A DNA stretch of 18,960 nucleotides from a virus (IMGVR_UViG_2585427767_000004), one strand, 5' to 3'. Shown: positions 1-18,541, numbered from the stretch's first letter. The notes: generated from the sequence alone by a model not told the origin. A program made the numbers and translations.

Positions 1-884
1 ATGGGTATGCTGGAAAGAGAGATGAAAAACCTGGCGCGGCAGGCTGGCGGGGCGCACAAGATTGTCCATGACCGTATCGCCACGGCAGGACGGTTCTGTG
101 GACGCCTGATGGAACTGAACGTTCAGATACGCTATGTCCACCATTTAAAGACGAAGCATATTGAGGCGTATATTCAGATGCGGCTGGCGCAGGGGATTCA
201 GAAACAGACGCTGCATAATGAAACGGCGGCCATCCGTAAAATACTGACGCAGGCCGGGCGCGAAAAGCTGGCGCAGAGTGAGCGGATATCGAATAAATCG
301 CTGGGGCTGGCTGGCGTATCCCGCAACGGTACGCGGAAAGCCATTACGCCGGAATATTATCAACAGATGGCAGAGACTGCCCGGCTGAAAGACGCGGGAC
401 TGGAGGCAGCGCTGGAGCTGGCACGGCTGATGGGGTTACGTTCACAGGAAGCAGTACGCTGTTCCGGTTCACTAAAAACCTGGCGCGAAGCACTGGCGCA
501 CGGCGACACCCGGCTGACCGTGGTACTCGGCACCAAAGGCGGACGGCCCCGCGGCACCCTTATTCAGGATACTGGCGCAGTTAAACGGGCGCTTGAGACT
601 GCCATTGCGGTGACAGAACGGCGTAACGGCAGGCTGATTGATACGGCGAGCCTTAAACAGGCAATAAAATACTGGCGCAACCACACTTTGCGTATGGGCT
701 GACGGACAAATACTCCCCGCACTCACTGCGCTACGCCTGGGCGCAGGACGATATCCGCCGGTATCTGGCGCAAGGATTCAGCGAAAAAGAGGCGCTGGCA
801 ATGGTGGCGATGGGCCTGGGGCATGGCGACGGGCACGGTCGCTGGGTGAAGCAGGTGTACGCACACGAATGGAAGAAGGAATAA
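1..884 (+). pseudogene. Tyrosine recombinase (phage-type integrase), reading frame disrupted
   Basis: ORF 1..702 (233 aa) has an integrase-like N-terminal/central region including an Arg-containing box-I-like segment (RLTVVLGTKGGRPRG). TGA at 700-702 ends it, but the catalytic box II continues in another frame at 699..884 (LTDKYSPHSLRYAWAQDD...GLGHGDGHGRWVKQVYAHEWKKE, with His-x-x-Arg and a C-terminal Tyr). Either a real frameshift or a sequencing indel near 690-705. The ORF reaches the window start, so the true 5' end may lie upstream. Confidence 0.6.
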
Positions 885-1462
885 CAGCTTTCATGGCTGG
901 CGCAAAATAATACATTATGCAGTAACGGCGGTAATTTCTCTGATGCAGCTGTCAGGGAAAATCAAACCGGATAGCGCCGTTACTGCGTAACGCCAGCAAT
1001 TTACCACTCCCTCTTTACTGGATATGGCGCAGAGAGCAATGGGTATTGATTATACAGATCCAGACTACAATAACGCTTCTGGTGCAGGCTCTCATGATAC
1101 CTATCTGAATAAGCTGACTCCGTCAGAAAGGGAAAGGGTTATAAAGGTTAAAGGTGGCTAAGGGTAACAGCCCTGGCCGGAAAAGGCCGAAAACCAAAGG
1201 GCCACAAACTGGCGCAGTCCTGGATAGTTATGGTAGTTGAATGCAGGTTTGGTTGATCACAATACAGCCTGGTGTGTACAGCTTGTTCATTAACTGACCA
1301 CACTGCACGTTCACAACACCCCATCCAAAGAACAAAATGAATGCTTCCGGACTAACATCCTCACAGGCCGCTATATCGTGCCAAACAAGTACGCCAGTAA
1401 GTACGCGAGAGGAAAAATGAGAAGATCTTTATGAGAGGAAAAATTGTAACTCTTTGATTTAA

Positions 1463-1508
1463 ATGGTGCCGATAATAGGAGTCGAACCTACGACCTTCGC
1501 ATTACGAA
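1463..1508 (-). other. 3' fragment (about 46 nt) of tRNA-Thr(CGU), thrW-like; att core duplicate, not a functional tRNA
   Basis: Minus-strand sequence reads ATTCGTAATGCGAAGGTCGTAGGTTCGACTCCTATTATCGGCACCA: anticodon loop with CGT, T-arm GGTTCGACTCC, acceptor 3' strand and CCA. The sequence upstream of the anticodon loop (higher coordinates) does not form the D-arm or 5' acceptor strand, so only the 3' part is present. The match to E. coli thrW is from memory, not from a search. Confidence 0.8.
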
Positions 1509-2494
1509 TTATAAGAATCCGCTTCTAATTCAAAGCATTACCCCATTAACACTGCGCTCACACGTCCCACCACATCAAAACATGTAAAGCCTTGCAAGCC
1601 ATTGTGAGGCCTTATGTGTCTCAGTTTTGTCCCATCTTGTATTACGACTCGCATAGCCAATGAAGATAAACGTGACAACAAACGGCGAAGCAGTCTTCTT
1701 TTCTTTCACGCCTTCCCTGCACGCAGCATGCATACCTTTCTACCACAACTGAAGTGAATGCCTGTTATGAGCAACAAGCGGAAGTTAAATGGTTAGACGT
1801 TAGCATCGACTTACACAGGTCTAACCCAATGCGGCAGCTCCCGACAGGCTGGATGTTGTCAATGCTGAAAAGGGCAAGGGACGGGCAACCGCATATCTCG
1901 GCCTGCAGCGGCCCCTCCTGAAAGACGAGTCTCAGCGCTGGCATCGGCAGAATGCGTGACGGAACACATGACATCGATACGGGCGATGTTGAACAGTGTG
2001 CGTTCCCGTTCGGCAGGGGGGAGCGTGGTATGAACAGACCTGTTTTAGCCAGCCCGTATACCGGTCCCGTTTTCAGCTGTGTGAGGCGCTGAATGCCGTC
2101 GACGGGGTAGTCACTCACTTTTCCTGCGAGGGGCATCCCCGCGCCGCTGCGCGGCCATATGTTGTTTTCTCTTCCAGTGAGTTAGTGGCTCGCCGGACAG
2201 ACTGCGCAATCAGAATGGCTCACCGTCAGGGGCGCCTGCGGTACGTGTGGTGAGTGACAGGGGATTTCAGTGTTGCTTCGGGCAATTTTTTGTACTGCAT
2301 TGAACCCAATGATATCCGGTTAACCGGAAAGCCATGGCTGGGGTTAATCCCCCGCTGGCGAAGAAGGATAATGGATCACCATGCAACCTCTTGAAAATAC
2401 TTCCTTGATTATCAGAGTGTTTTTCCTCAAAATGTTTTTCTTTCAAACATTTTGTAATACACACTGCAATACACAACTTCTAAATGGATAAAGT

Positions 2495-3865
2495 ATGACT
2501 CTGAATGAATTTTCATCAACCACAGCATCTATTTTTGGTAATTTTGAAAAAATCATAAGAATGCTAAAAAGCATAAGTGACCCTAAATACATAACCGTTG
2601 CCAACAGAAGAAGCAAACTTTTGGGAAATATGTCCGAACATATTTCCATAATCAATAAATTCCATCCTTTCGCACATGCTGAATTCTTTACAAAAGAAGA
2701 AAAAGAAAATATCTTTTCACTACTAAAACTTACGGACAACTACATATCATCTATGATTTCTGATATTTTTTCAGATGATATTTATCGGAACATTATCACT
2801 ATCAATGATGATTTAATTAGGTATTCAAGAATATCTAAGTTTATCCAAGGCACGCATAATCAACCTAATACCTTAGCCATGTTCAAAAATCAAGCATCTA
2901 ATGAAATAGCCAAAGTGGTAGATCTGAAAAATGAAATTGAAATAAGTGCAACTCAAATCAGAGAGTTAGCAGTAAGAAATGCAAATTCTCATGATAAAAT
3001 CATTAAACTTGTTACGGACTTGAACGCCGAGACGAAAAAATTTGAAAGCGCCGGTTCTGAAATAGAATTCATACTAAAAAAGAGCAGAGATGCACTTATT
3101 GGTATAGAATCATCTAGTGAAAAGCTAAGAACTGTTGAAGAAACATTAAACAATATCGTTAATACAAACAAATCAATGCAAGACGAAATCATTAAAAAAT
3201 CTGCTGAGTCTGCCAGTGAGATTAAAAATCTCCTTGATAAAAAAAATGAAATTAAAGAATTAAAAACCATTATATCTGGTGAAATAAATAATGCGAAAGA
3301 ATTGAACTCTAAAGCTAATTCCGCATTGAATTTATCTGGAACATATAGGCTATCAAGACATTTTAGAGATGCATACAAAACCGCAAATAAAAACAAAAGG
3401 TTTTGGGCCTTTGTATCAATAGGAGCTGCAATCGTATGTATAGCATTCGTGGTTTATATGCTTGTCAAGATGAATGAAGTTAGTTCTTATCCTCCTACAG
3501 GCCAAGAGCCCAACTTATTATTATTATTCTTTGCTCGATTCTCAATGATTCCAGTATTAATAGGCTTCTTTGTATTTAGCGCCATACAATATGTTAAACA
3601 AAACAACATCAGTGAAGATTATGCGCATAAAAAATTGCTATCTGAAACTCTTGTATCTTTCAAGCAGGAAATCAATAAGAACGATACCGATAAATCATCA
3701 TTATTCATGGATAACATTCTTAAATCAGTATTAAGATCACCGCTTAGCTCCATAGACAAGAAGTCGCATCAAATGGAAATTGATAAAATAAACGAATTGA
3801 TTAATACGACATCTAAAATTAATAAAGAAATTATAGACCGCGTTTTGCCTGAGAAAGAGAAATAA
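2495..3865 (+). CDS. Hypothetical protein, 456 aa: coiled-coil-rich N-terminal domain, two predicted transmembrane helices, short C-terminal tail; candidate membrane effector (defence / superinfection exclusion); family not recognised
   Basis: Long uninterrupted ORF in a visibly AT-rich block, with ATG at 2495 and a weak GGA Shine-Dalgarno about 6 nt upstream. Residues about 309-330 (FWAFVSIGAAIVCIAFVVYMLV) and about 348-370 (LLLLFFARFSMIPVLIGFFVFSAI) are strongly hydrophobic. The N-terminal 300 aa are K/E/I/N-rich with heptad-like periodicity. No catalytic motif recognised. Confidence 0.8.
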   Translation: MTLNEFSSTTASIFGNFEKIIRMLKSISDPKYITVANRRSKLLGNMSEHISIINKFHPFAHAEFFTKEEKENIFSLLKLTDNYISSMISDIFSDDIYRNIITINDDLIRYSRISKFIQGTHNQPNTLAMFKNQASNEIAKVVDLKNEIEISATQIRELAVRNANSHDKIIKLVTDLNAETKKFESAGSEIEFILKKSRDALIGIESSSEKLRTVEETLNNIVNTNKSMQDEIIKKSAESASEIKNLLDKKNEIKELKTIISGEINNAKELNSKANSALNLSGTYRLSRHFRDAYKTANKNKRFWAFVSIGAAIVCIAFVVYMLVKMNEVSSYPPTGQEPNLLLLFFARFSMIPVLIGFFVFSAIQYVKQNNISEDYAHKKLLSETLVSFKQEINKNDTDKSSLFMDNILKSVLRSPLSSIDKKSHQMEIDKINELINTTSKINKEIIDRVLPEKEK

Positions 3866-4644: not shown

Positions 4645-5349
4645 TTTCAACTCCCGCCAGCCCACCAATCATGATTGGACGGTGTAAGGACAACACCAAA
4701 AAAACATGAAGTTAGCAGTCTCAGCGGAACACCGACCAGACGGTAAGCAGACAAAAAAGGATAAGCAAAGGAGCCGCAGTTCCCTAATGACACGAAAGCC
4801 CGCATTCTGATTAATTTGCTGTGCTTCACCTATCTCCATCAATAAAAACCATTCTTTTATAGCTTGTATATGCCAACTTGGCATGAATGCTTGTGATGAG
4901 TGAGGTGTGAAAGTTAGACGCAACATCCCCCTAGCGCCCACTCATTGCTATCGACGCCTTATTTTCAACATCAATGCAAATAGAAGTATGAAGATCGATG
5001 ATAGTAAACATTAGGTTAAAAAAACACGTAGTACTCTCCTTGGAGTATGAAGACGTTACTCACTTTAAGATTAGCATCCTCAAACCACTGTGAATTTGCT
5101 CCCATACGGAAAGAGGTGACTCAGACCTACAAAAATTTGTCAGGCCCGAAGGGTATCTTGCGCCAGCATAAAATACTGGATATAACCTAACTATTCATTT
5201 TAGCAATAGCCATTGCTTACGAGAGCTAGCTAATCTACGTAAATGCTAGGCATAACAGTGTCTTTAAAAGATATAGGTGGAATAAGTTCTGAAGTATGAG
5301 TGCTCTTCTTTTTCATCTATTCGTAATCAAAATGTGGATGTGATTGTTA

Positions 5350-8300
5350 ATGACAAATAAAAAAAATTTGAGTAATCCTTTTTCTACAGGCGGAGGCGGT
5401 GTTCATTTTGAAGCACATGTCCAAGCGTCTTTTGTTGCTCTAATGCTAACAGGCGGTAATGCACCTTGTCTTCCTTGTTGGCCCATAGTGGAGATAAATC
5501 TCCAGGGCAAGATTGATGGTTTTGATACCGACGACTTGATCGTCGTTGTTAAAGATTTCAACAGCAATGAAAAACGGAAGCTATTAGGACAAATAAAGCA
5601 TTCTATTTCATTTACGCAAGGTAATGCGATACTTGGGGAAGTTATACAGGCTGCTTGGAACGATTTCAACAATCCTGACTTGTTTACCAAGAACAAGGAT
5701 GTTATTGCACTGATCACCGGTCCGCTCAGTTCGACCGATACACACAATGTGCTCTGGTTATTGAATCAGGCTAGACACACAAAAACAGTCGATGAATTTT
5801 TGAGGAACGTTCAAAAAGCCAAGTTCAGCCCGCCTAAAAGTACTGAGAAACTGGAGGCCATCCAGTTTCATCTGAAGATGGCAAACAGTGGGAACGATTT
5901 AACAAACGATGAGCTTTATGACTTTTTGAACCATTTCCATTTACTAGGGTACGATCTGGGTAATGAATCAGGCGTCGTCCTTTCTTTGCTGCACTCCCAC
6001 ATAGCGCAATTCCATCAACAGTATCCTCAGTGGGTTTGGTCGCGGATAGTTGATATCGTACAAACTTGGAATAAAGATGCTGGCACTATCATTTCAAGTA
6101 AGCTACCTGAAGATCTTTTAGATGTTTTCAAACAAAGGGTTATTGCTGAAATACCTGAGAAGTTGAGGTTAGTACAACCGGTAGTCAAAACCGACTGGAC
6201 TCACCACCCAGATGCCTCTTATTTAGCCTTAGCAGTGTTGATTGGGCAATGGAATGATAAAAATGAGTGTGACCGAAATGTACTAACCCAATTGCTTGGT
6301 ATCAGCTATGACGAATGGCTAAGGAAGGCTCGAGAGATTTTACATAGCCCAGACAGTCCTTTGTCCCTAAAAAACGGCATTTGGAAAGTAACAAATCGAA
6401 TGGAGCTATGGAGTCTTCTTGGATCCCGCATTTTTGATCAGAATCTTGAATTGTTTAAGTCTTCCGCGATTTCCGTACTCAAAGAGCCAGACCCTGCTTT
6501 CGAATTACCTGCTGAAGAGCGTTACGCTGCTAGTATTCATGGTAAGGTGCTGAAGTTTTCATCCACGCTGCGACAAGGTATAGCAGAGGGTTTAGCCATA
6601 ATCGGGAGTCGGCCAGAGGTTTGCGTTAACTGCTCTCAGGGGAATGCTGAAACTTCCGTTAACGTCGCAATACATACAATTTTGACTGATGCAAACTGGG
6701 TTTTATGGGGTAGCCTAAACGGTTTGCTACCAACTTTGGCTGAAGCAGCTCCTGCAAAATTTCTTGATGCAGTTGAGAAGGCAATGCGTCAGACTCCTTG
6801 TGCATTTGATGAGCTTTTTTCTCAAGAAGTAAATGGTATCACTGGTGGTAATTATCTGACAGGACTGCTATGGGCTCTAGAAGAATTAGCCTGGGATGAG
6901 CAATACCTAGTACGCGTCTGTGTTGTACTGGCCGAACTTGCCAGCCACGATCCTGGGGGCAAGTGGGCTAATCGACCATCTAACTCGCTTACTACTATAT
7001 TATTACCGTGGTTTCCGCAAACGCTGGCATCTATAGAAAAACGAAAAGTTGCAGTCAACGTCATCTTGCAGGAATGGCCTGACATTGCCTGGAATTTACT
7101 CGTCCAGCTTCTACCCGGTCACCATCAAACCTCTTCTGGGTCACACAAGCCCTCTTGGCGCCGAATAATCCCAGATGATTGGGAAAGCAAAGTGACTAAT
7201 CAGGATTACTGGTTGCAGACATCTTTTTATGCTGAGCTTGCCGTCAAAAACGCCGGAGAAGATATCGAACGCCTTACCTTGTTGATTGATAATTTTGATG
7301 GCCTTCCATCTCCTGCTTTCGAACATCTTCTTAAGCACCTCTCTTCGGAAACAATTAATTGTCTTAATGAAGAGCAGCGAGTTGTAATTTGGGATCATCT
7401 TCATCGATTCGCAAATAAACATCGGCGATTCTCTAATGCTAATTGGGCTTTACCTGATGATCTGCTGACCAAAATCGAAAATGTTGCCGAGCAACTGGCA
7501 CCTACCAATCCATTCAACTTATATCAGCACCTTTTTTCAAATCGAGATTTTGATCTTTACTTAGAAAATGGCGATTGGGAAGAACGGAGAAATAAACTCG
7601 AATCAAGGCGCGAATCCGCAATATCAGAAATTCTTAAGCAAGATGGCGCAGAAGGCGTTATTCGATTTGCAGATCACGTTTCTGCGCCCCATCAAATAGG
7701 AAGTGTACTCGGCACTATCAACGATGATGTGTTCGAAAAACTTCTTTTGCCCCGTTTCCTCAATACAAAAGAAAATAAGTATAAGGCATTGGTAAGCGCT
7801 TTTATTTGGAAGCGTTTCTATCTCAAAGGCTGGGAGTGGTTCGACAATCTGGATAAAGCTGACTGGACTCCTGAACAGTTAGGCCAATTCTTTGCTTATC
7901 TGCCTTTTAACAAGGAGACCTGGACCCGAGTCTCTCATTATCCTCAAGCTTCCGAGAACGAATATTGGGCTCGCACCGATGCAAATCCTGACCTGGGTGA
8001 AGGTGACCTTACTAGTGCCATCGATAAGCTGATTGATCATGGCAGACCTCTTGCGGCAATCAATTGCCTGTGCAGGATGCATCAGACAAAGCAGCCAATC
8101 GATACTGAACAGTGTATCCGCGCTTTGCTTGCTGCCACTTCAACTAACGAATCTAGCTCCAACATGGATGGTTACAACATAACTACCCTTATCCAATTTC
8201 TTCAGACTGATCCCAAAGTGAATCCGGATAATCTTTTTCAGATCGAGTGGGCTTACCTTCCATTGCTCGATGGTCACCAAGATGCTGTGCCTAAGTTCCT

Positions 8301-8892
8301 TGAGAATAAAATGGCTAATGATCCAGAATTTTTCTGCGAAGTAATCCAACTCATTTATCGTTCTGACAAAGAAGACAATATGACAAGTGAACCAACAGAG
8401 GAATTGAAAGCAATCGCAAAAAATGCCTGGACTCTTTTGTACAACTGGAAGACACCGCCAGGAAGCCAATCAAATGGGACGTTCAACGGAGAACGCTTTA
8501 CTGAATGGCTTCAGAAAGTTAAGGAGGGTTCTACGGCATCAGGTCACCTGGACGTTGCACTCAGCAAAGTTGGTGAAGTCTTGATTTATACTCCCTCCGA
8601 ACCGAATGGCTTGTGGATAAACCGAGAGGTCGCAGCTGCTCTCAACGATCGAGATGCTGAGAGTATGCGCAGGGGCTACATGACAGGAGCCTACAACTCA
8701 CGAGGTGTTTATTGTGTTGACCCAACTGGAAAACCTGAGAGAGAGCTAGCTGACCAGTTCCGGGCAAAAGCAGAAGAAGTGGAAAACGCTGGTTTTCAGC
8801 GATTCGCCGTTACCTTAAGAGATTTAGCGGTTGGCTATGACCACGAAGCTGCACAGGTTATCAGCAATCTAAATATTGGAGAGGATGATTAA
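5350..8892 (+). CDS. Large hypothetical protein (about 1180 aa), no P-loop; family not recognised; candidate stand-alone defence or toxin protein
   Basis: Uninterrupted 3.5-kb ORF. The track starts at TTG 5344, but ATG 5350 (MTNKKNLSNPF...) is the more likely start. Moderately AT-rich compared with the tail genes. No Walker A (GxxxxGK[ST]) found on reading the translation. Gly-rich N-terminus (FSTGGGGVHFEAH), CxxC pairs (CLPC, CVNC), Trp-rich helical remainder. Putative terminator just downstream. Confidence 0.85.
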   Translation: MTNKKNLSNPFSTGGGGVHFEAHVQASFVALMLTGGNAPCLPCWPIVEINLQGKIDGFDTDDLIVVVKDFNSNEKRKLLGQIKHSISFTQGNAILGEVIQAAWNDFNNPDLFTKNKDVIALITGPLSSTDTHNVLWLLNQARHTKTVDEFLRNVQKAKFSPPKSTEKLEAIQFHLKMANSGNDLTNDELYDFLNHFHLLGYDLGNESGVVLSLLHSHIAQFHQQYPQWVWSRIVDIVQTWNKDAGTIISSKLPEDLLDVFKQRVIAEIPEKLRLVQPVVKTDWTHHPDASYLALAVLIGQWNDKNECDRNVLTQLLGISYDEWLRKAREILHSPDSPLSLKNGIWKVTNRMELWSLLGSRIFDQNLELFKSSAISVLKEPDPAFELPAEERYAASIHGKVLKFSSTLRQGIAEGLAIIGSRPEVCVNCSQGNAETSVNVAIHTILTDANWVLWGSLNGLLPTLAEAAPAKFLDAVEKAMRQTPCAFDELFSQEVNGITGGNYLTGLLWALEELAWDEQYLVRVCVVLAELASHDPGGKWANRPSNSLTTILLPWFPQTLASIEKRKVAVNVILQEWPDIAWNLLVQLLPGHHQTSSGSHKPSWRRIIPDDWESKVTNQDYWLQTSFYAELAVKNAGEDIERLTLLIDNFDGLPSPAFEHLLKHLSSETINCLNEEQRVVIWDHLHRFANKHRRFSNANWALPDDLLTKIENVAEQLAPTNPFNLYQHLFSNRDFDLYLENGDWEERRNKLESRRESAISEILKQDGAEGVIRFADHVSAPHQIGSVLGTINDDVFEKLLLPRFLNTKENKYKALVSAFIWKRFYLKGWEWFDNLDKADWTPEQLGQFFAYLPFNKETWTRVSHYPQASENEYWARTDANPDLGEGDLTSAIDKLIDHGRPLAAINCLCRMHQTKQPIDTEQCIRALLAATSTNESSSNMDGYNITTLIQFLQTDPKVNPDNLFQIEWAYLPLLDGHQDAVPKFLENKMANDPEFFCEVIQLIYRSDKEDNMTSEPTEELKAIAKNAWTLLYNWKTPPGSQSNGTFNGERFTEWLQKVKEGSTASGHLDVALSKVGEVLIYTPSEPNGLWINREVAAALNDRDAESMRRGYMTGAYNSRGVYCVDPTGKPERELADQFRAKAEEVENAGFQRFAVTLRDLAVGYDHEAAQVISNLNIGEDD

Positions 8893-9546: not shown

Positions 9547-10248
9547 TCAGATATCGTTTCGGGAAGTTGATAACAACTTTAATTCTGACTGAAGTTCATC
9601 AACTCTTTCTGTCAGTTTCTGGATATGGTGAATCAGTGGAACAACCAGACGTTCGTACATTACACCTTCGGCAACAAGGCCATTGCTGGAAATAGCTTCC
9701 GGTGCATCATCTTCGTTAGCTGGTCGCCAGTGTACAAACTGAGGGGCAATTTCTCCTACTTCCTCGGCAATCAATCCGTAGAATCCCCAGTCACGCCTGT
9801 CATTTTCGCATTGCGACCTGTACCACACAGGGCGCATCTTGAAAATGAGATCGGCGTGCTCTGAATCTATCGTCTCTACTGAATGTTTATAGCGAATAGA
9901 CGATGTTGACCGCAGTACAGACGAAATTGCGGGGTCAGGATTAAGATAAAGGTTTGCCGCCGCTGTAGTCGTGGCCAAATTCCATAAATAAAACGCTTCT
10001 CGACCTGTCAGCGGGTAAAAATCACCGCCATAACGACCGCTTTCCAGATCGTTCGCTTCCACTTTGTTTTTCAGCTTATTATCAACTTCAGTTTTTGTGT
10101 ATCTGGTGCTGATATCCTGCTTTGCACTGGTCATATCAGTCTGAAGCGTTGATACTTTTCCGTTAATTGAGGAAATATCTTCCTTAGCTTTACTGACATC
10201 TCCCTTTAGCGTGGTAATGTCTCCCGGAATTACTGTCGATGTAGCCAT
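9547..10248 (-). CDS. Tail fibre domain protein with C-terminal intramolecular chaperone (peptidase S74-like) domain
   Basis: N-terminal coiled-coil-like segment (GDITTLKGDVSKAKEDISSINGKVSTLQTDMTSAKQDIS) and C-terminal WGFYGLIAEEVGEIAPQFV...YERLVVPLIHHIQKLTERVDELQSEL, which matches the pattern I recall for endosialidase-chaperone-type C-terminal domains of phage fibres. Confidence 0.7.
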   Translation of the reverse strand: MATSTVIPGDITTLKGDVSKAKEDISSINGKVSTLQTDMTSAKQDISTRYTKTEVDNKLKNKVEANDLESGRYGGDFYPLTGREAFYLWNLATTTAAANLYLNPDPAISSVLRSTSSIRYKHSVETIDSEHADLIFKMRPVWYRSQCENDRRDWGFYGLIAEEVGEIAPQFVHWRPANEDDAPEAISSNGLVAEGVMYERLVVPLIHHIQKLTERVDELQSELKLLSTSRNDI

Positions 10249-10257
10249 TTTTCTTCC

Positions 10258-10539
10258 TCACATCCAGCCACGAAGTTGATGCTCAACAGCAACCACGTAT
10301 TCATCGAATATTGACAGTGTTTTCACATCATTAATGATGCGCACGTTTACAAAATATCCGTCTTCCTTAACACATACCGGTTCGCCATCTTCATTCAGTT
10401 CTCCGGTTTCTTTGTACACGTTACCTATCACGTCAATAAGAATATCATCCTGCATCGACTCGTCATCATAATAGCCAGTGCTATCCATAAAGGCCGAAAA
10501 GTCGGCCTTGTCTGCAAATTTAAGGGTTAAGTCTCTCAT
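10258..10539 (-). CDS. Hypothetical phage protein (93 aa), translationally coupled to stf
   Basis: Start codon overlaps the stf stop (ATGA overlap at 10536-10539). Acidic protein. Sits where lambda carries tfa but is shorter, and I do not recognise it as Tfa. Confidence 0.65.
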   Translation of the reverse strand: MRDLTLKFADKADFSAFMDSTGYYDDESMQDDILIDVIGNVYKETGELNEDGEPVCVKEDGYFVNVRIINDVKTLSIFDEYVVAVEHQLRGWM

Positions 10540-12596
10540 GATATTTTTTCTCCCATTTGTGTCTCGGTCAATTCTTTATGCCAGTTCCTAAAATTTCGAA
10601 TATGACCGAATAAGTGACGTTCACCCGTTGAAGTTTGCCCACCAAAACGAATGCTTGTATTCTTAGTTACATATCTCCACGCGGTTTTTTTAGGAACACT
10701 AGGAGGAATATCACCATTCAAAACAATATGAACACCATAATCTTTAGTAATTCTAAATCCAGCAACGAACTTTCTCTCTTTCGTTACCAGGTAACTATTA
10801 ACGCGTCCAGCATCTGCACCAACATCAATATAAGGGCTACCAGTATTTGCGGCAGTACCGCCACGGCAACCAAAAATAACGGCCTGGCCCGTTGGCACAC
10901 CGGAAAAATCCATTATACGTGGTGCTGCATTAGGAGGAAGTTCCCATTCCCAATTTCGATGAACTTCGGCTAAAATTGTAATAGGTGCGTCATACATATT
11001 ATTCTTAACAGGAATGTTAACCAAATCACTAGCGCGGGTAGCTGGTACGTCGTTAGTTATGATTAATGATGTTGCATGAGAACATTTCTCTACCTGAGCG
11101 GTTGCCGCCTTTATGTAATTTCCTGCGACCAATTCGCCGCCACTTTTAGCAAGCATTTCAGTACGAGCATAAACGCTCATATCTTCGGTAGCTTTAAATG
11201 TCGATTGGAAAAAATACCATCCACTAGCAGGATCATAATCAACGCGACTAGACAAAACATCACTAACTAGTTTAGCGGTATCAAGATCCAACATAGCATC
11301 AGCAATAAATGTGTTTCCGTTCCCGTCATCATTTAATTTTGAAATACGATGGCGAGCGCGACAACCAGCCCCCTTAACACGAATAGATATAGTAACATAT
11401 TCACCACCAACAACTGGAATCACACGGGATGTCCCAGTAGAAATCAACGTAACTGGCCCAGTGTCGGATGATTCTTTATAAGTGAATGTTGCTTGAGTAA
11501 AACCAAATTCATCAATAGAGTTTTCACTAACAGATAGACGGTTTGTATTTCTGTTCCAGTTCGCTGGTGAGTTACTATTAATAAAGTTATTAGTCGTAGT
11601 ACCTTCAATCAACAAACCATTTTTTTCGAAGCGTGGTTCGTCAATTGCAGCCTCCGTCAGTACACCAGATTTGTTAATGTAGGTTGCTTTCGATGCGCGT
11701 TTAAACTTTACAACCTTATCGCCAGGCATTGTTATTTCATCATCACCAATAACAATCTTTTTATATGATGGCGAAAAGCCCGTAATCATATCCAGTGAAT
11801 CGTTAAACGGTATCCACACATCGGGAAGCGGCTGCAAAACTTGTTTATACGGCTCCGCAGCCTGGCTTGCATACTCTCTGGCTGCGTCTTCACTTGCTTT
11901 AGCTGCTGTCTGGCTTGCTGCCGATGCTTTCGCCGAGTTCGCCGCCGCTGTTTCGCTCGCCTTTGCGTTGTTTTCACTGGTTTTTGCTGCTTTTTGGCTG
12001 TTGGCTGATGCAGTGGCAGAAATAGCCGCCTCGCTTGCAGATCCGGCTGCGGCACTCTCGCTTTCAGCTGCTGCATCCTGACTGTTTTTCGCCGCAGTTT
12101 CGCTGGCTTTAGCGTTCGTTTCGCTGGTCTTCGCTACCGTCTGGCTGGACTTTGCGTTAGTTTCGCTCGTCTTCGCTGCTTTCTGGCTGTTAGCAGCTGC
12201 AGTTTCGGATTTCTTTGCCGCCGCTGCGCTCTGAGAGGCGGCTTCAGCGTTGCGTGCTGCTTCTTCCACCATTGCCTCAAAACGACGCAATGCCTCCGGC
12301 ATGACATCATCTTCCGTCATGGCACCGAGAAAATCATTCAGCGTACCAGGTCTGGAACCTTCATAGACGGTAATGGTTCCGGCATGTGAAGGCGGAAAAC
12401 CTTCAACCAGCAGGGTGACGCTGTACTGGCCATGCTCAACATCCATGCTGTAACTCCCGGCTTCATCCGGATTTTCAGAGGCCACCGTGTTCACCAGTAC
12501 CGTGGTGCTGTTACGCTTTGCTTTGAGCTGAATAGTGCAGTTCTGTATTGGTTTTCCTGCACCGTCTTTCAGCACGCCTGAAATCTGTACTGCCAT
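10536..12596 (-). CDS. stf: Side tail fibre protein (lambda Stf-like) with Ala/Ser/Thr-rich repeat shaft and a distinct C-terminal domain
   Basis: N-terminus MAVQISGVLKDGAGKPIQNCTIQLKAKRNSTTVLVNTVASENPDEAGSYSMDVEHGQYSVTLLVEGFPPSHAGTITVYE closely resembles the lambda Stf N-terminus as I recall it. Start placed at ATG 12596 with GGAG 5 nt upstream; the track start at 12602 is an in-frame GTG. Confidence 0.9.
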   Translation of the reverse strand: MAVQISGVLKDGAGKPIQNCTIQLKAKRNSTTVLVNTVASENPDEAGSYSMDVEHGQYSVTLLVEGFPPSHAGTITVYEGSRPGTLNDFLGAMTEDDVMPEALRRFEAMVEEAARNAEAASQSAAAAKKSETAAANSQKAAKTSETNAKSSQTVAKTSETNAKASETAAKNSQDAAAESESAAAGSASEAAISATASANSQKAAKTSENNAKASETAAANSAKASAASQTAAKASEDAAREYASQAAEPYKQVLQPLPDVWIPFNDSLDMITGFSPSYKKIVIGDDEITMPGDKVVKFKRASKATYINKSGVLTEAAIDEPRFEKNGLLIEGTTTNNFINSNSPANWNRNTNRLSVSENSIDEFGFTQATFTYKESSDTGPVTLISTGTSRVIPVVGGEYVTISIRVKGAGCRARHRISKLNDDGNGNTFIADAMLDLDTAKLVSDVLSSRVDYDPASGWYFFQSTFKATEDMSVYARTEMLAKSGGELVAGNYIKAATAQVEKCSHATSLIITNDVPATRASDLVNIPVKNNMYDAPITILAEVHRNWEWELPPNAAPRIMDFSGVPTGQAVIFGCRGGTAANTGSPYIDVGADAGRVNSYLVTKERKFVAGFRITKDYGVHIVLNGDIPPSVPKKTAWRYVTKNTSIRFGGQTSTGERHLFGHIRNFRNWHKELTETQMGEKIS
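11855..12270 (-). repeat. Tandem short repeats inside stf encoding an (A)KTSETNAKAS-like Ala/Ser/Thr-rich shaft
   Basis: Protein residues about 112-250 consist of reiterated AAKTSETNAK / SQKAAKTSE / ASETAAKNS units; the DNA shows corresponding reiterated GCTTTAGC/GTTTCGCT/GTCTTCGC blocks. Confidence 0.55.
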
Positions 12597-12610
12597 ATTC
12601 ACTCCACAAA

Positions 12611-12656: not shown

Positions 12657-15600
12657 TCAACGGATACTGATACCGGAAGCAGCTTTTTTGGTCACAATCA
12701 CTGTACAGTCTGTGATGTTACCTGCGCCCTGATTGCCTTTCTGGAAAACCTTAAACTCCAGAGTGACGCTTCCCCTGCCACTCGGCATATCAATAACCGC
12801 ACTGTAGCTACCGGGAATGGCCCCTTTAGTTTCTCTGGATGCGATTAATACACCGTTTTTGCGAACTTCAAAACCATAACCCGTGTATCTTGTACCTCCC
12901 GGGTTATTACCACTTCCCGGATCGCTATACGCTATTCCGTTAAAGATAATGGGCGGAATAATGATTTGACGGTCAAAGTTATGATCATCGCTGATGGTGA
13001 CTGTAACCGTCCCGTTTGGTGTTTCCGTATTACCCCACGTACCAGCCTGTTTCGGGAATGATTTGGATACAGCTTTAACGAAGTCACCTCTGACCTGAGT
13101 CGCCTCCAGCATGCCCTTAATCGTACAGTTTTCATTTACCGTGACATTGTTGAACGTCCCGGCGTTCGCATTCACACTGCCACTGATATCCGCATTTTTA
13201 GCGGTCAGCTTTCCGTCTGATGTCAGGGAAAATGCCGGTGGATTTCCACCACTGGTAATGGTCGGGGCCGTCAGGCGCTTCAGGAACACGTCGTTCATAA
13301 ATATCTGATTGCCCTGCGCCACAAACATCGGCGTTTCATTCCCGTTTGCCGGGTCAATAAACGCGATACGGTTAGCGGCAACCAGAAACTGGCTCAGCTT
13401 GCCTTCTTCCGTGTCCTCCATGCTGAGGCCAATACCCGCGACATAATGTTTGCCGTCTTTGGTCTGCTCAATTTTGACGCCCCACATGGCATTCCACTTA
13501 TCGTTAGCGTCCTGCCACTCTTTCGAAAACTCCTCCAGTTTGCTGGCGTTATCCTCCGTCAGCTCGACTTTTTCCAGCAGCTCCTTGCCGAGATGGGATT
13601 CGGTTATCTGGCCTTTGAAAAAATCCAGGTAACCTTCCGCATCATCGCTCGCCTGACCGACAGCCTCCACGAATGCCGATTTGCCAACGGTGTTCACACT
13701 GCGGATATAAAAGTAATAATCATGGCCCGGTTTGATATTGATACTGGCGGCTATCCAGTACATCCCCGTGCCAAGATAGCGGGCTGTGGTTTCAACCTGC
13801 CTGATATCCGCAATCCGTTTTTCCGAGAACCAGAACTCAAACTGTACCGTCGGGTCATAAACCGCAAGATGCGGCGTGGCGGTTATCTGAAAATAGCCCG
13901 GTGTCAGCTCAATCCGAGACGGCGCTGCCGGTGCGGCAATCCGGAACGATACCGATGCCGGATCGCCCTGCTGTCCCCACGCATTTACCGCCCGGACTGT
14001 CAGCCTGTAGTTCCCCAGCGCCAGTTGCGTGAAGCGGTATGTGGTTTCCGCCGTCCGGGCCGTGCTGACCAGCCGCTCACTGCCGTCATCCGCTGCCACG
14101 GTCAGGCGAAGCATGAAACTCACGCCCTTCACCACCTTCGGCGTGTCCCAGCGGGCCAGCACCTGGTATTCCCCACTGTCTGCGGTGACTTCGGCAGTCA
14201 GGTGCTGCACCGCTGGCGGCGTGACACCATTCACCGTGCCGCTCTGGTCGCCGTCAAAGTGCGCCCCGTTATCCACGATGGCTTCTTTTTCCGGTACATG
14301 CTGCACGGCGGTGATGGCATACGTGCCGTCGTCGTTCTCACGGATACTCACGCAGCGGAACAGGCGCTGGCGCAGCGTCGGCAGCTTCAGCCCCCACACG
14401 CTGTATTCAGCAACGCCGTCAGGAACACGGCTCACTTTCACCTTCACGCCGTCGGTGACGGACTGAACCTCCACGCTGACCGGATTGCCACTTCCGTCAA
14501 CCAGGCTTATCAGCGTGGTACCGGAGGATGGCAGCGTGATTTCACGGTCGAGCGTCAGCGTCCGGGTCTGGCTGTTTACCGCCAGCACGCGCCCGCCGGT
14601 GCTGATACCGGCATAGTCATCATCACAGATTTCAATGACATCGCCCGGCACATGGCGAAGCCCTTCGGCACCCACGCTGAAGTCCACCGTCTGCGTTTCC
14701 AGCAGCTCCGTTTTAATCAGCCACAGCCCGGCGCGGTGTGCCTGCCCCCGGCTGGTACAGCCAAAGGCATCCATCTTCGTGACGTTACGACCGTAACGGG
14801 CAATGGCCTGCGAGTCCTCCACAAGCTCTGTTGCCGTCTCCCAGCCGTTATCCGGGTCAATCCAGTTCACCTCAACGGCATTATGGCGGTCTTTCAGGGC
14901 GCTGAAGCTGTAGCGGAACGGCGCGCCATCATCCGGCATCACCACATTACTGCGGTTATAGGTCCACACCTTATCCGACGGTCGGTCCTGCACGAACGTC
15001 AGCGTCTGCCCGTTCCATACCGGCATACAGCGCATCGCCGAGCAGAAATCACTGAGCACATCCCACGCCTTGCGCTGTGTGGTCAGGTATGCATTACAGG
15101 TGATGCGCGGCTCCGTGCCGCCAAAGCCGTCCGGTACTGACTGGTCGCAGTACTGGCCGATGACATACAGCGCCCATTTGTCCACATCCGCCGCACCAAG
15201 ACGTTTCCCCATGCCGTAGCGTGGATGGGTCAGCATATCCCACAGACACCAGGCCATGTTGTTGCTGTATGCCGGTTTAAACGTTCCGTCCCAGATACCG
15301 CTGTATTGCCGCGTCTGCGGGTTATAGTTCGACGGCACCTGCAGAATGCGCCCGCGAAGATGATAATTACGGCTCACCTGCTGGCTGCCGAACTGCTCCG
15401 AATCCACCTGTACGCCGACCAGTGCCGTGTTCGGGTAGCACTGTTTCACATCGATGATTTCGGTGTATGACGACCAGAGCGTTTTGTTCTGCAGCTGGTC
15501 TGTGGTGCTGTCCGGTGTCATCCTGCGCATCCGGATATTGAACGGGCGCGGCGGCAGGTTATCCACCACCACCGAGGCCAGATACTGCGAGGTGGTTTTG

Positions 15601-16070
15601 CCCTTAATGGTGATGTCTTTTTCCGTCACCCAGCCACCGTTACGCTGTATCTGAACCAGCAGGCGGACTTCCGACGGATTCCTGTCTCCCTTTGAGGTGG
15701 TTTCCACCAGTGCCTGTACACCGAAGGTAAAGCGCAGACGGTCGATGTTTGCCGACGTGATGGTCCGGGTGATCGGCGTGTCATATTTCACTTCCGTACC
15801 CAGCACCGTCTCGGAGCCGGAGGATTCAAATCCCTCCGGCGGTGACTGCTCCTGCTCACCGGCCCGGAACACCACCGTGACGCCGGAGATGTTGGTATTC
15901 CCCTCAGTGTCCAGCACCGGCGTACTGTTCAGCAGCACACTTTTTAATCCCTCCACCGGACCTTCAACCGGCCCTTCGCTGATGGCATCGATCACACTCA
16001 GCAACTGCGTGGACTTCAGGTTGTCCTTCGCTTCGCGCGGGGTATGCCCCTTACTGCTGCCTTTACCCAT
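12657..16070 (-). CDS. J: Host specificity protein J (central tail fibre / tip attachment protein)
   Basis: 1137-aa protein beginning [34 protein letters not shown], colinear with lambda J as I recall it over most of its length. The C-terminal roughly 130 aa (from about [20 protein letters not shown]) appear different. GGAG ribosome-binding site upstream. Confidence 0.95.
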
Positions 16071-18010: not shown

Positions 18011-18541
18011 GTGCAGTTTATGAAACATTCATTTGAAGTAAAACTTGCCGCTGTAAATCATTACCTGGCTGGTCATGCAGGCATCATTTCTACGGCAAAA
18101 CTCTTTCAACTTTCTCACACCAGCCTCTCACACTGGATTAATCTTTTTCTTCTTCACGGTCCTCGGGCACTGGATTGCAGACACAAGCGTAGCTATTCTC
18201 CTGAAGATAAACTTTGCGTGGTTCTTTATGCTCTCGGGCATTCTGAGTCTCTACCCCGGGTAGCTGCCCGGTTTAACATTCCCAGCCACAACACGGTTAA
18301 AAACTGGATAAAAGGCTACCGCAAATCTGGTAATGAGGCCTTTATCAGGCGCAGGAAGGAGAAAAGCATGACCCGTTCTGATGATACCCATGAAAACGAG
18401 GCAAACATGACGCCGGAAGAGATGAAGAATGAGCTGCGTTATCTTCGCGCAGAAAATGCATATCTGAAAGCCATGCAGGAGCATCTCCTGGAAAAAAAGC
18501 GCCAGGAGCTGGAGAAAAAACGAAAGTCATCCGGAGCCTGA
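18011..18541 (+). CDS. IS3-family transposase OrfA (HTH DNA-binding component)
   Basis: 176-aa ORF with helix-turn-helix-like N-terminus and a leucine-zipper-like C-terminus (ELRYLRAENAYLKAMQEHLLEKK). The true start may be ATG 18020 (MKHSFEVKLAAVNHY). Confidence 0.85.
   Translation: MQFMKHSFEVKLAAVNHYLAGHAGIISTAKLFQLSHTSLSHWINLFLLHGPRALDCRHKRSYSPEDKLCVVLYALGHSESLPRVAARFNIPSHNTVKNWIKGYRKSGNEAFIRRRKEKSMTRSDDTHENEANMTPEEMKNELRYLRAENAYLKAMQEHLLEKKRQELEKKRKSSGA
18493..18499 (+). promoter_or_regulatory. Programmed -1 ribosomal frameshift site (A AAA AAG) for OrfAB fusion
   Basis: Heptamer A-AAA-AAG in the orfA zero frame at 18493-18499, with orfB open in the -1 frame from here on. Confidence 0.6.

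Follow-up and report, generated by a model that had tools for sequence, protein, structure and literature searches.

A frameshifted PF12834/PF12835 gene at the thrW end of an Escherichia coli dnd/dpt island, probably the relic of a relaxase relative

The broken gene and its surroundings

The DNA analysed here, a viral stretch of 18,960 nucleotides (IMGVR_UViG_2585427767_000004; hereafter the window), opens with the ATG of a gene whose two parts are read in different frames. The 5' part (positions 1–702, + strand) occupies frame 1, in which the ORF listing and the three-frame translation give codons 1–233, ending in ...KYWRNHTLRMG, and then a premature TGA at 700–702. The 3' part (699–884, + strand) occupies frame 3, with codons 234–294 followed by TAA at 882–884; this frame is open from about position 654, and its translation runs ...LTDKYSPHSLRYAWAQ...MGLGHGDGHGRWVKQVYAHEWKKE up to the stop, the 3' part also being given as ...LTDKYSPHSLRYAWAQ...LGHGDGHGRWVKQVYAHEWKKE. 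Window positions 1–900 were aligned with the corresponding region of three complete genomes of E. coli, namely 33F4, whose intact allele (885 bp, 294 aa; locus L002, 6001–6885) served as the reference, and two genomes with frameshifted copies. Against 33F4, the alignment contains a single 1-bp gap, located in a run of G residues at 696–698 (+ strand): the window has GGG where intact alleles have GGGG (CGTATGGGGCTGACG in 33F4, CGTATGGGCTGACG in the window), a 1-bp deletion that moves the reading from frame 1 to frame 3. The initial annotation had described an integrase gene in two frames with a switch around 690–705, and had proposed alignment with intact homologues as the means of locating the indel; this description was correct, and the gap lies inside the proposed interval. 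The homologues are continuous ORFs of 290–300 aa, as expected for one gene broken by an indel and not for a natural stop. Positions 1–702 and 699–884 are therefore the two halves of one 294-codon gene.

When the missing G is restored, a continuous 294-aa protein results, which matches PF12834 and PF12835 end to end in a Pfam scan. Within the 5' part lie the codons for the SAM-like DNA-binding domain (PF12834) and for the first half of the catalytic domain (PF12835). All six catalytic codons are present in the window, but they are divided between the frames: R147 (439–441) and K179 (535–537) are in frame 1, while H241 (720–722) and R244 (729–731) of the HxxR motif, which reads HSLRY here, H275 (822–824) of the LGH motif and the nucleophile Y287 (858–860) are in frame 3, so that no single product contains the whole set. 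The lesion lies seven codons ahead of the HxxR histidine (CAC). Owing to the loss of one G, translation stops at codon 233, and the HxxR motif, the His and the Tyr required for DNA cleavage are never made. The window gene is thus unable to yield a catalytic protein.

On the 3' side, the gene is followed by a non-coding tail (885–1226, + strand), parts of which are also conserved behind homologous genes of other islands, as judged by alignment and by blastn to two of the other loci (L004 and L005). The tail contains four exact direct copies of the 9-mer CTGRYGCAR, at 897, 940, 1079 and 1209; a scan of the window for this motif returned 16 matches against 1.55 expected, 10 of them within 184–1217 and all on the + strand. 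Next comes a spacer of 237 bp (1227–1463, no strand assigned) that is specific to thrW dnd islands: it was found at ≥80% coverage in only 25 of 5426 E. coli genomes, always at the thrW dnd locus, and it had no informative relatives. The spacer ends at a 46-nt fragment of the tRNA-Thr gene thrW (1464–1509, − strand), comprising the 3' end from the CCA terminus to the anticodon loop and representing an att duplication. This fragment was identified by alignment with the intact thrW of strain Ecol_316 and with a prophage end of strain A28, together with a pattern search; ARAGORN found no complete tRNA in the window. It marks the point at which the dnd island, on its left, meets the moron and tail end of a lambdoid prophage, on its right. 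The thrW fragment with prophage genes to its right therefore indicates that the prophage integrated into thrW and displaced the older island from the intact tRNA copy.

The rest of the element was to be sought upstream of position 1, and the contig that carries the exact window product bears the same island genes there. In Ecol_316, the order is proA, thrW, the pseudogene, dndBCDE, a DGQHR-protein gene, dptHGF, HTH genes, AbiEi/Eii and core genes, and the locus is a DNA-phosphorothioation restriction-modification island of ~21 kb. No other recombinase gene is present in the thrW dnd island. Searches of 885–1463 by tblastn and blastn, using P4-like integrases and their flanks as queries, revealed no remnant of a P4-like integrase, and no second thrW 3' end (25 nt, ≤3 mismatches) occurs within 40 kb in Ecol_316. 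The thrW dnd island consequently lacks the parts needed for excision, having neither att repeats at both ends nor a functional integrase. The proposal that the locus is a decaying remnant therefore applies to the mobility functions, given the inherited deletion, the further lesions and the absence of a P4-type integrase and of a distal att site, but does not extend to the dnd/dpt cargo genes, which are annotated as intact. A previous study of E. coli dnd islands (PMC4373003) likewise described dndBCDE with dptFGH in a mosaic island by a tRNA gene, with an 'integrase' as the first element, and reported islands at the thr tRNA gene. Its main text does not report the frameshift, and the study does not tell the PF12835 gene apart from canonical integrases.

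Inheritance of the deletion and decay of the allele

The gene is matched in 161 of 5426 complete E. coli genomes, with ≥99% identity in 24. All 19 full-length copies with ≥99.8% identity span 884 bp rather than 885, and these 19 copies therefore carry the deletion. Three RefSeq records that we opened all annotate an 'integrase domain-containing protein, frameshifted'. The RefSeq/PGAP pseudogenes BE963_RS14955 (Ecol_316) and J1F19_RS18545 (EcPNK004) are the same gene in its 884-bp allele (99.9% identity); they share both the 1-bp deletion of the window and its place between dndB and thrW, and they had already been flagged as frameshifted. The window differs from these copies by one extra substitution, at G52, which gives Ala18 instead of Ser, and by the prophage in thrW on its right side. 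This prophage-in-thrW arrangement was found in GCA_000714265.1 and, at ≥80% coverage, in none of the 5426 complete genomes. The GenBank record for the 233-aa product is KEL75683.1. The exact product of the window, with Ala18, is recorded four times on contigs drawn from NCBI, ENA and Logan, GCA_000714265.1 being one of them, and the commonest variant of the 233-aa product (P0327) occurs on at least 1000 contigs. An intact copy of the window allele was found nowhere among 5.8 billion proteins, the best intact relative being 91–92% identical; nor was an intact window-type allele hidden inside the nearest cluster, whose members are all of this other type. Our analyses therefore show that the deletion is real and has been inherited by a widespread E. 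coli lineage.

Sister copies carry lesions of their own. A different frameshift yields a 171-aa product (187 contigs); an in-frame deletion of 84 bp (28 codons), running exactly between two CTGGCGCAG repeats at 184 and 268, yields a 205-aa product (40 contigs); and 5' truncations yield a 197-aa product. The dN/dS of the repaired window allele against four intact E. coli alleles is 0.18–0.25, the same as among the intact alleles themselves, so that most of the 8% divergence is older than the inactivation. The window allele has 12 private residues, and it departs from columns invariant in 27 more distant relatives at 13 positions, compared with 5–7 for the intact E. coli alleles. G236D, D272G and R279H are private substitutions located 3' of the break at positions conserved in relatives, and at columns with ≥90% conservation among 65 diverse relatives, no allele shows any departure other than R279H. 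The N-terminal part, too, has extra substitutions at invariant positions (T21I, A51T and M222I). These extra substitutions fit relaxed selection after the frameshift. Because they affect conserved residues, repair of the single base need not restore activity.

These observations bear on three other accounts of the break. According to one, raised in the initial annotation, the break is a homopolymer error of sequencing or assembly, the gene is intact in the living strain, and the element may still be mobile. The lesion, a 1-base length change in a G run, is indeed of the commonest sequencing-error type. However, the run is merely 3–4 bases long, the same deletion recurs in at least 19 complete genomes from many laboratories, and private substitutions at conserved residues have accumulated 3' of the break. 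The recurrence of the exact window product in three independent data sources, and of a 233-aa product on so many further contigs, together with the lack of any intact version of the allele in the databases searched, excludes a sequencing error for all practical purposes, and the idea of a still mobile element falls together with it. A functional break, by programmed −1 ribosomal frameshifting, transcriptional slippage or a phase-variable G tract, is likewise extremely improbable. A shift of −1 at ATG-GGC-TGA would bring the reading back into frame, and the stop codon follows directly after the site; however, the site (U AUG GGC UGA) lacks an X XXY YYZ slippery heptamer, the intact relatives examined (hundreds, of about 290–300 aa) are all single ORFs, no GGGG variant of the allele exists among the at least 19 genomes, and the allele gathers other inactivating lesions. 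Known contingency tracts are far longer than a run of 3–4 bases. We thus found neither a slippery heptamer or long tract, nor a conserved shift, nor length variants. In the third account, the truncated 233-aa product is still made and serves a non-catalytic role; with its DNA-binding domain and half of the catalytic domain, it might for instance bind the upstream site as a regulator or inhibit related islands. This account does not conflict with regarding the gene as dead in its catalytic function. It is consistent with the start codon, the ribosome-binding region and codons 1–233 all being intact in the window and in most copies, with the existence of repressor-only proteins of the recombinase fold (MrpR, YopR and SroF are among the structural matches), and with a dN/dS against intact alleles that is still low. 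Nevertheless, divergence older than the frameshift accounts for the low dN/dS, other copies have lost the 5' end or 28 internal codons or are cut at codon 159, and the substitutions T21I, A51T and M222I at invariant positions hit the N-terminal part as well. We therefore regard a retained role of the product as improbable, and the gene as an ordinary pseudogene in a fixed island, one that is already annotated publicly.

Protein family, module sites and the EFASI element

The repaired protein matches PF12834 with 107.2 bits (model positions 1–91 of 91) and PF12835 with 187.6 bits (1–149 of 149), while its score against PF00589 (Phage_integrase), 16 bits, is below the cut-off of 27.1. This architecture (Phage_int_SAM_2 + Integrase_1) is also that of the 120 closest relatives, all of them judged by precomputed Pfam domains. 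Across 67 diverse members of the family, R147, K179, H241, R244, H275 and Y287 are each invariant or conserved at ≥90%. By sequence, a profile built from 67 relatives retrieved no PDB chain at E ≤0.01. The AlphaFold2 model of an intact homologue (P0001, 91% identical; mean pLDDT 83) displays the two-domain tyrosine-recombinase fold, and its best PDB matches in Foldseek are lambda Int 75–356, an archaeal Xer, Tn1549 Int and Cre (probability 1.00, TM about 0.5). The conserved six residues and the two-domain fold thus identify the protein as a genuine member of the tyrosine-recombinase superfamily, in which the PF12834/PF12835 family forms a minor side branch; at 50% identity, it comprises about 780 clusters (E ≤0.001). 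A role as a plasmid resolvase was considered and rejected, since no copy of the gene exists on E. coli plasmids and relatives occur in only 52 plasmid records of PLSDB.

In E. coli, the module formed by the gene and its flanking DNA is located at tRNA-Thr (window, 33F4), at tRNA-Asp (A34, in a T6SS island) and in a defence island on the side of sslE-gsp (DSM 103246); in Klebsiella and Serratia, it adjoins tRNA-Phe. Well-preserved island ends are arranged in the order tRNA, P4-like integrase, PF12835 gene and cargo, the PF12835 gene being usually convergent with the integrase. The nucleotide identity of the module between islands at different tRNAs is 90–94%, and the two thrW alleles, those of the window and 33F4, are not each other's closest relatives.

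Upstream of the gene, every locus examined contains a full-length match to the Rfam family EFASI (RF02957), at a distance of 93–250 bp and with scores of 109–122 bits. These loci span three genera, E. coli, Klebsiella and Serratia, and include the source contig of the window, although the element itself is outside the window, which begins at the ATG of the gene. Between islands, identity is 97–99% for EFASI, 94–96% for the proximal 535 bp of non-coding DNA and 90–94% for the gene; for the whole 800-bp upstream block it is 87–94%. EFASI, a conserved, structured and GC-rich element, and the conserved 535-bp stretch are located just 5' of the gene in all loci, and may be regarded as a candidate oriT region. 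In the portion of the description quoted in PMC12370729, the name stands for 'Enterobacteriaceae, Frequently Around STAXI and Integrases', and the Rfam guess is a trans-acting sRNA. The 'integrase' of this acronym appears to be the PF12834/PF12835 gene family. STAXI gave no match, either in positions 4800–7600 of locus L001 at E ≤1 or in the other loci, which were searched at the gathering score only. Predicted promoters and terminators in the vicinity of EFASI and the gene were no more numerous than in shuffled sequence. EFASI could also be merely the 5' leader of the gene.

Ancestral role of the intact protein

MpsA is an atypical, tyrosine-recombinase-like relaxase of Salmonella genomic island 1 (SGI1), in which oriT lies upstream of mpsA (PMC6414798), and PF12835 has been described by the Burrus laboratory as the MpsA-type 'INT_DTR_like' signature (PMC10484663). 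We recovered the mpsA–mpsB locus (L009), and hence the MpsA sequence, by scanning genome contigs with a primer from PMC6414798. The profile of the window family aligned with MpsA at an hhalign probability of 98.3% (E 1.2e-14) over 237 columns that span both domains. MpsA itself matches PF12835 with 43 bits, and BLASTP between MpsA and the window protein gave E 5e-6 over 86 residues at about 26% identity. The family is thus homologous to an experimentally characterised MOB_M member. MpsA and the window family both match PF12835 and both score below the PF00589 cut-off; the GLRxxE, GTKGGR, HxxR, LGHG and C-terminal Tyr motifs are common to the two; each is encoded in an island that targets a tRNA or another gene and possesses a separate integrase; and a conserved, GC-rich structured element is located upstream of each gene. 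The window family differs from MpsA in having its own fused N-terminal PF12834 domain. The window island also differs from SGI1, as no traG, traN or sgaCD genes are nearby and the cargo consists of defence systems instead of resistance integrons.

Several features count against a relaxase. The identity to MpsA is low, the gene sits by the tRNA in thrW islands, where an integrase is expected, and no MpsB-like partner ORF exists 3' of the gene, the only ORF there being one of 45 aa at 1024–1161. The full R-K-H-R-H-Y set does not discriminate, since both MpsA and a true recombinase would be expected to have it. The EFASI model did not match the oriT region upstream of mpsA in SGI1, where only sub-threshold 'Transposase-2' matches were obtained. 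In favour of a relaxase, a recent preprint (bioRxiv 10.64898/2026.01.13.699239) reports that relaxases of the MpsA-like MOB_M type outnumber all others in the chromosomes of E. coli, Salmonella and Klebsiella, that their annotation is often that of an integrase, that 96% of them are near an integrase, and that 56% are in islands without a mating apparatus. None of the MOB_M seed accessions of that preprint is among the family cluster members listed.

The principal competing explanation is that the gene was the island's own Cre/Xer-like integrase, acting at thrW, and that the frameshift locked the island in place. Such a role would be in keeping with the two-domain tyrosine-recombinase fold, for which lambda Int, Xer, Tn1549 Int and Cre gave the best matches, and with the conservation of all six catalytic residues. 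Furthermore, the thrW dnd island holds no other recombinase-like gene, the distance from this one to the tRNA is 580 bp, and published descriptions of E. coli dnd islands place an integrase gene first (PMC4373003). However, an enzyme that chooses the insertion site should track that site, and the PF12835 gene does not: the module occurs at tRNA-Thr, tRNA-Asp and tRNA-Phe and its alleles do not group by site, so that the site specificity does not follow the enzyme as would be expected of a P4-type integrase. Better-preserved islands have a P4-like integrase between the gene and the tRNA; the 33F4 island, with an intact copy, has the same proximal layout and no P4-type integrase annotated between the gene and thrW; and the Ecol_316 island is without a distal thrW repeat. 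The family profile is related to MpsA, whereas by sequence it is detectably related neither to solved recombinases nor to the neighbouring P4-like integrase (hhalign probability 0.45%, E 0.13). P4-type integrases share with the window gene the superfamily fold, the catalytic residues and the neighbourhood at the tRNA end of islands, but they consist of Arm-DNA-bind_3, Phage_int_M (PF22022) and PF00589 in about 400–430 aa, while the window gene encodes 294 aa with PF12834 and PF12835 only and no arm-binding domain. In intact islands, P4-type integrases are separate genes between the PF12835 gene and the tRNA, and they are absent from the window. The gene is therefore unlikely to have been the enzyme that inserted the island, although this is the one competing explanation to which we assign appreciable weight.

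We therefore consider mobilisation, rather than integration, the more likely ancestral role. Taken together, the evidence is best explained by a dead PF12834/PF12835 gene in a fixed island, which probably descends from a relative of MpsA-like (MOB_M-type) relaxases. That the intact protein was a relaxase-like mobilisation enzyme, acting on conserved upstream DNA beside a separate P4-like integrase, is slightly favoured by the homology and the gene order. In such a scheme, the intact protein would bind and nick the structured DNA just 5' of its own gene, in the EFASI region, beside the separate P4-like integrase, and a helper conjugative element would then transfer the island once it was excised. 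The window island would have lost both integrase and relaxase and kept its defence cargo, the loss of the relaxase-like gene meaning a loss of mobilisation in an island that was already fixed in the chromosome. More tentatively, the PF12834/PF12835 gene and the upstream DNA with EFASI might constitute a relaxase–oriT module shared within a large family of Enterobacterales defence islands that travel with a P4 integrase and have dnd/dpt, T6SS, AbiE or other cargo, with EFASI acting as a single-stranded DNA or oriT hairpin array and not as an sRNA; this broader proposal is possible, but we would not presently expect it to hold in full.

To conclude, the frameshift itself carries little weight, since decayed mobility genes of this kind are numerous in the islands of E. 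coli. To call the gene an 'integrase' is probably misleading and gives no basis for inferring mobility of the dnd/dpt island upon repair of the frame; the island is also without a P4-type integrase and a distal att site. Of wider relevance is the PF12834/PF12835 family, which constantly accompanies the EFASI motif and is related to the relaxase of SGI1. Should its members prove to be relaxases, many genes of Enterobacterales annotated as 'integrase domain-containing protein' would mark mobilisable defence islands, and EFASI would gain a function.

RNA motifs around the integrase-like gene and its relatives

The Rfam motif EFASI (RF02957; "Enterobacteriaceae, Frequently Around STAXI and Integrases") lies 5' of the integrase-like pseudogene, hereafter the gene, in all loci examined, with scores of 109–122 bits in E. 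coli, Klebsiella and Serratia (loci L012, L001, L002, L004–L006, L015, L017 and L018). It is absent from the window because the window begins at the ATG of the gene. In L012, a locus that extends further upstream, the motif occupies 9750–9883, which is 118–251 bp upstream of window position 1, and in L001 it occupies 5750–5883. EFASI is 97–99% conserved, whereas the gene is 90–94% conserved.

About 1.5 kb 5' of the gene, four islands also carry matches to the isrK Hfq-binding RNA, the C4 antisense RNA or both. Both RNAs were matched in L015 (8245–8437), L017 (8245–8437) and L018 (8217–8406), and C4 only in L006 (2890–2978). These matches directly precede an ORF of 124 or 153 amino acids and an HTH_35 gene, which suggests that a phage-like regulatory cassette has been kept in these islands. 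C4 is an immunity RNA of the P1/P7 type.

The SGI1-like loci L009 (7168–7235, plus strand) and L008 (7601–7668, minus strand) gave matches to the Rfam "Transposase-2 RNA" at 21 bits, below the cut-off of 42.7, and these may be due to chance. The match in L009 is located about 270–340 bp upstream of mpsA, which encodes the SGI1 relaxase, a probable relative of the gene family; this site corresponds roughly to the position of the SGI1 oriT (PMC6414798).

Repeats and decay of the allele

The window has 16 matches to the 9-mer CTGRYGCAR, where 1.55 would be expected, and this repeat may be a site of protein binding. Ten of the 16 matches fall within the first 1.2 kb (184–1217), all on the plus strand; six are inside the gene, where four encode LAQ or LTQ, and four are in the non-coding tail (897, 940, 1079 and 1209). 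Similar repeats are also found 3' of homologous genes in other islands.

Different damage is seen in other copies, whether of this allele or of a mosaic one: P0328 (171 aa) has a second frameshift near codon 159, P0329 (197 aa) is truncated at its 5' end, and P0082 (205 aa) has lost 28 codons. The ends of this 84-bp deletion coincide exactly with the CTGRYGCAR copies at 184 and 268. P0022 (233 aa), whose allele background is just 89% identical, has the same truncated C-terminus as the window product. Together, these variants point to repeated decay and to recombination of the alleles with each other.

The neighbouring prophage and the thrW junction

The right half of the window consists of tail genes of a lambdoid prophage, which runs from 1510 to the window end; they include a tail fibre gene (10536–12602) and gpJ (12657–16070), both on the minus strand. 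The similarity to related prophages stops at about 17970, and just past this point an ORF starts (18011–18541, plus strand) that encodes HTH domains of IS-type transposases (HTH_28, HTH_Tnp_1); an IS element has therefore probably inserted in the tail-gene region.

At its att-proximal (moron) end, the prophage has two large plus-strand orphan ORFs, which may encode defence or exclusion functions. The 456-aa ORF (2495–3865), in a stretch with a GC content of only 32–40%, gave only weak, sub-threshold matches, to SUR7 and to PADLOC DruC/ZorA, and the 1182-aa ORF (5344–8892) had no match in Pfam or PADLOC.

A 46-nt 3' fragment of the tRNA-Thr gene thrW (1464–1509, minus strand) marks the junction with the prophage, and shows that thrW is occupied in tandem, with the island as the older element and the prophage as the younger.
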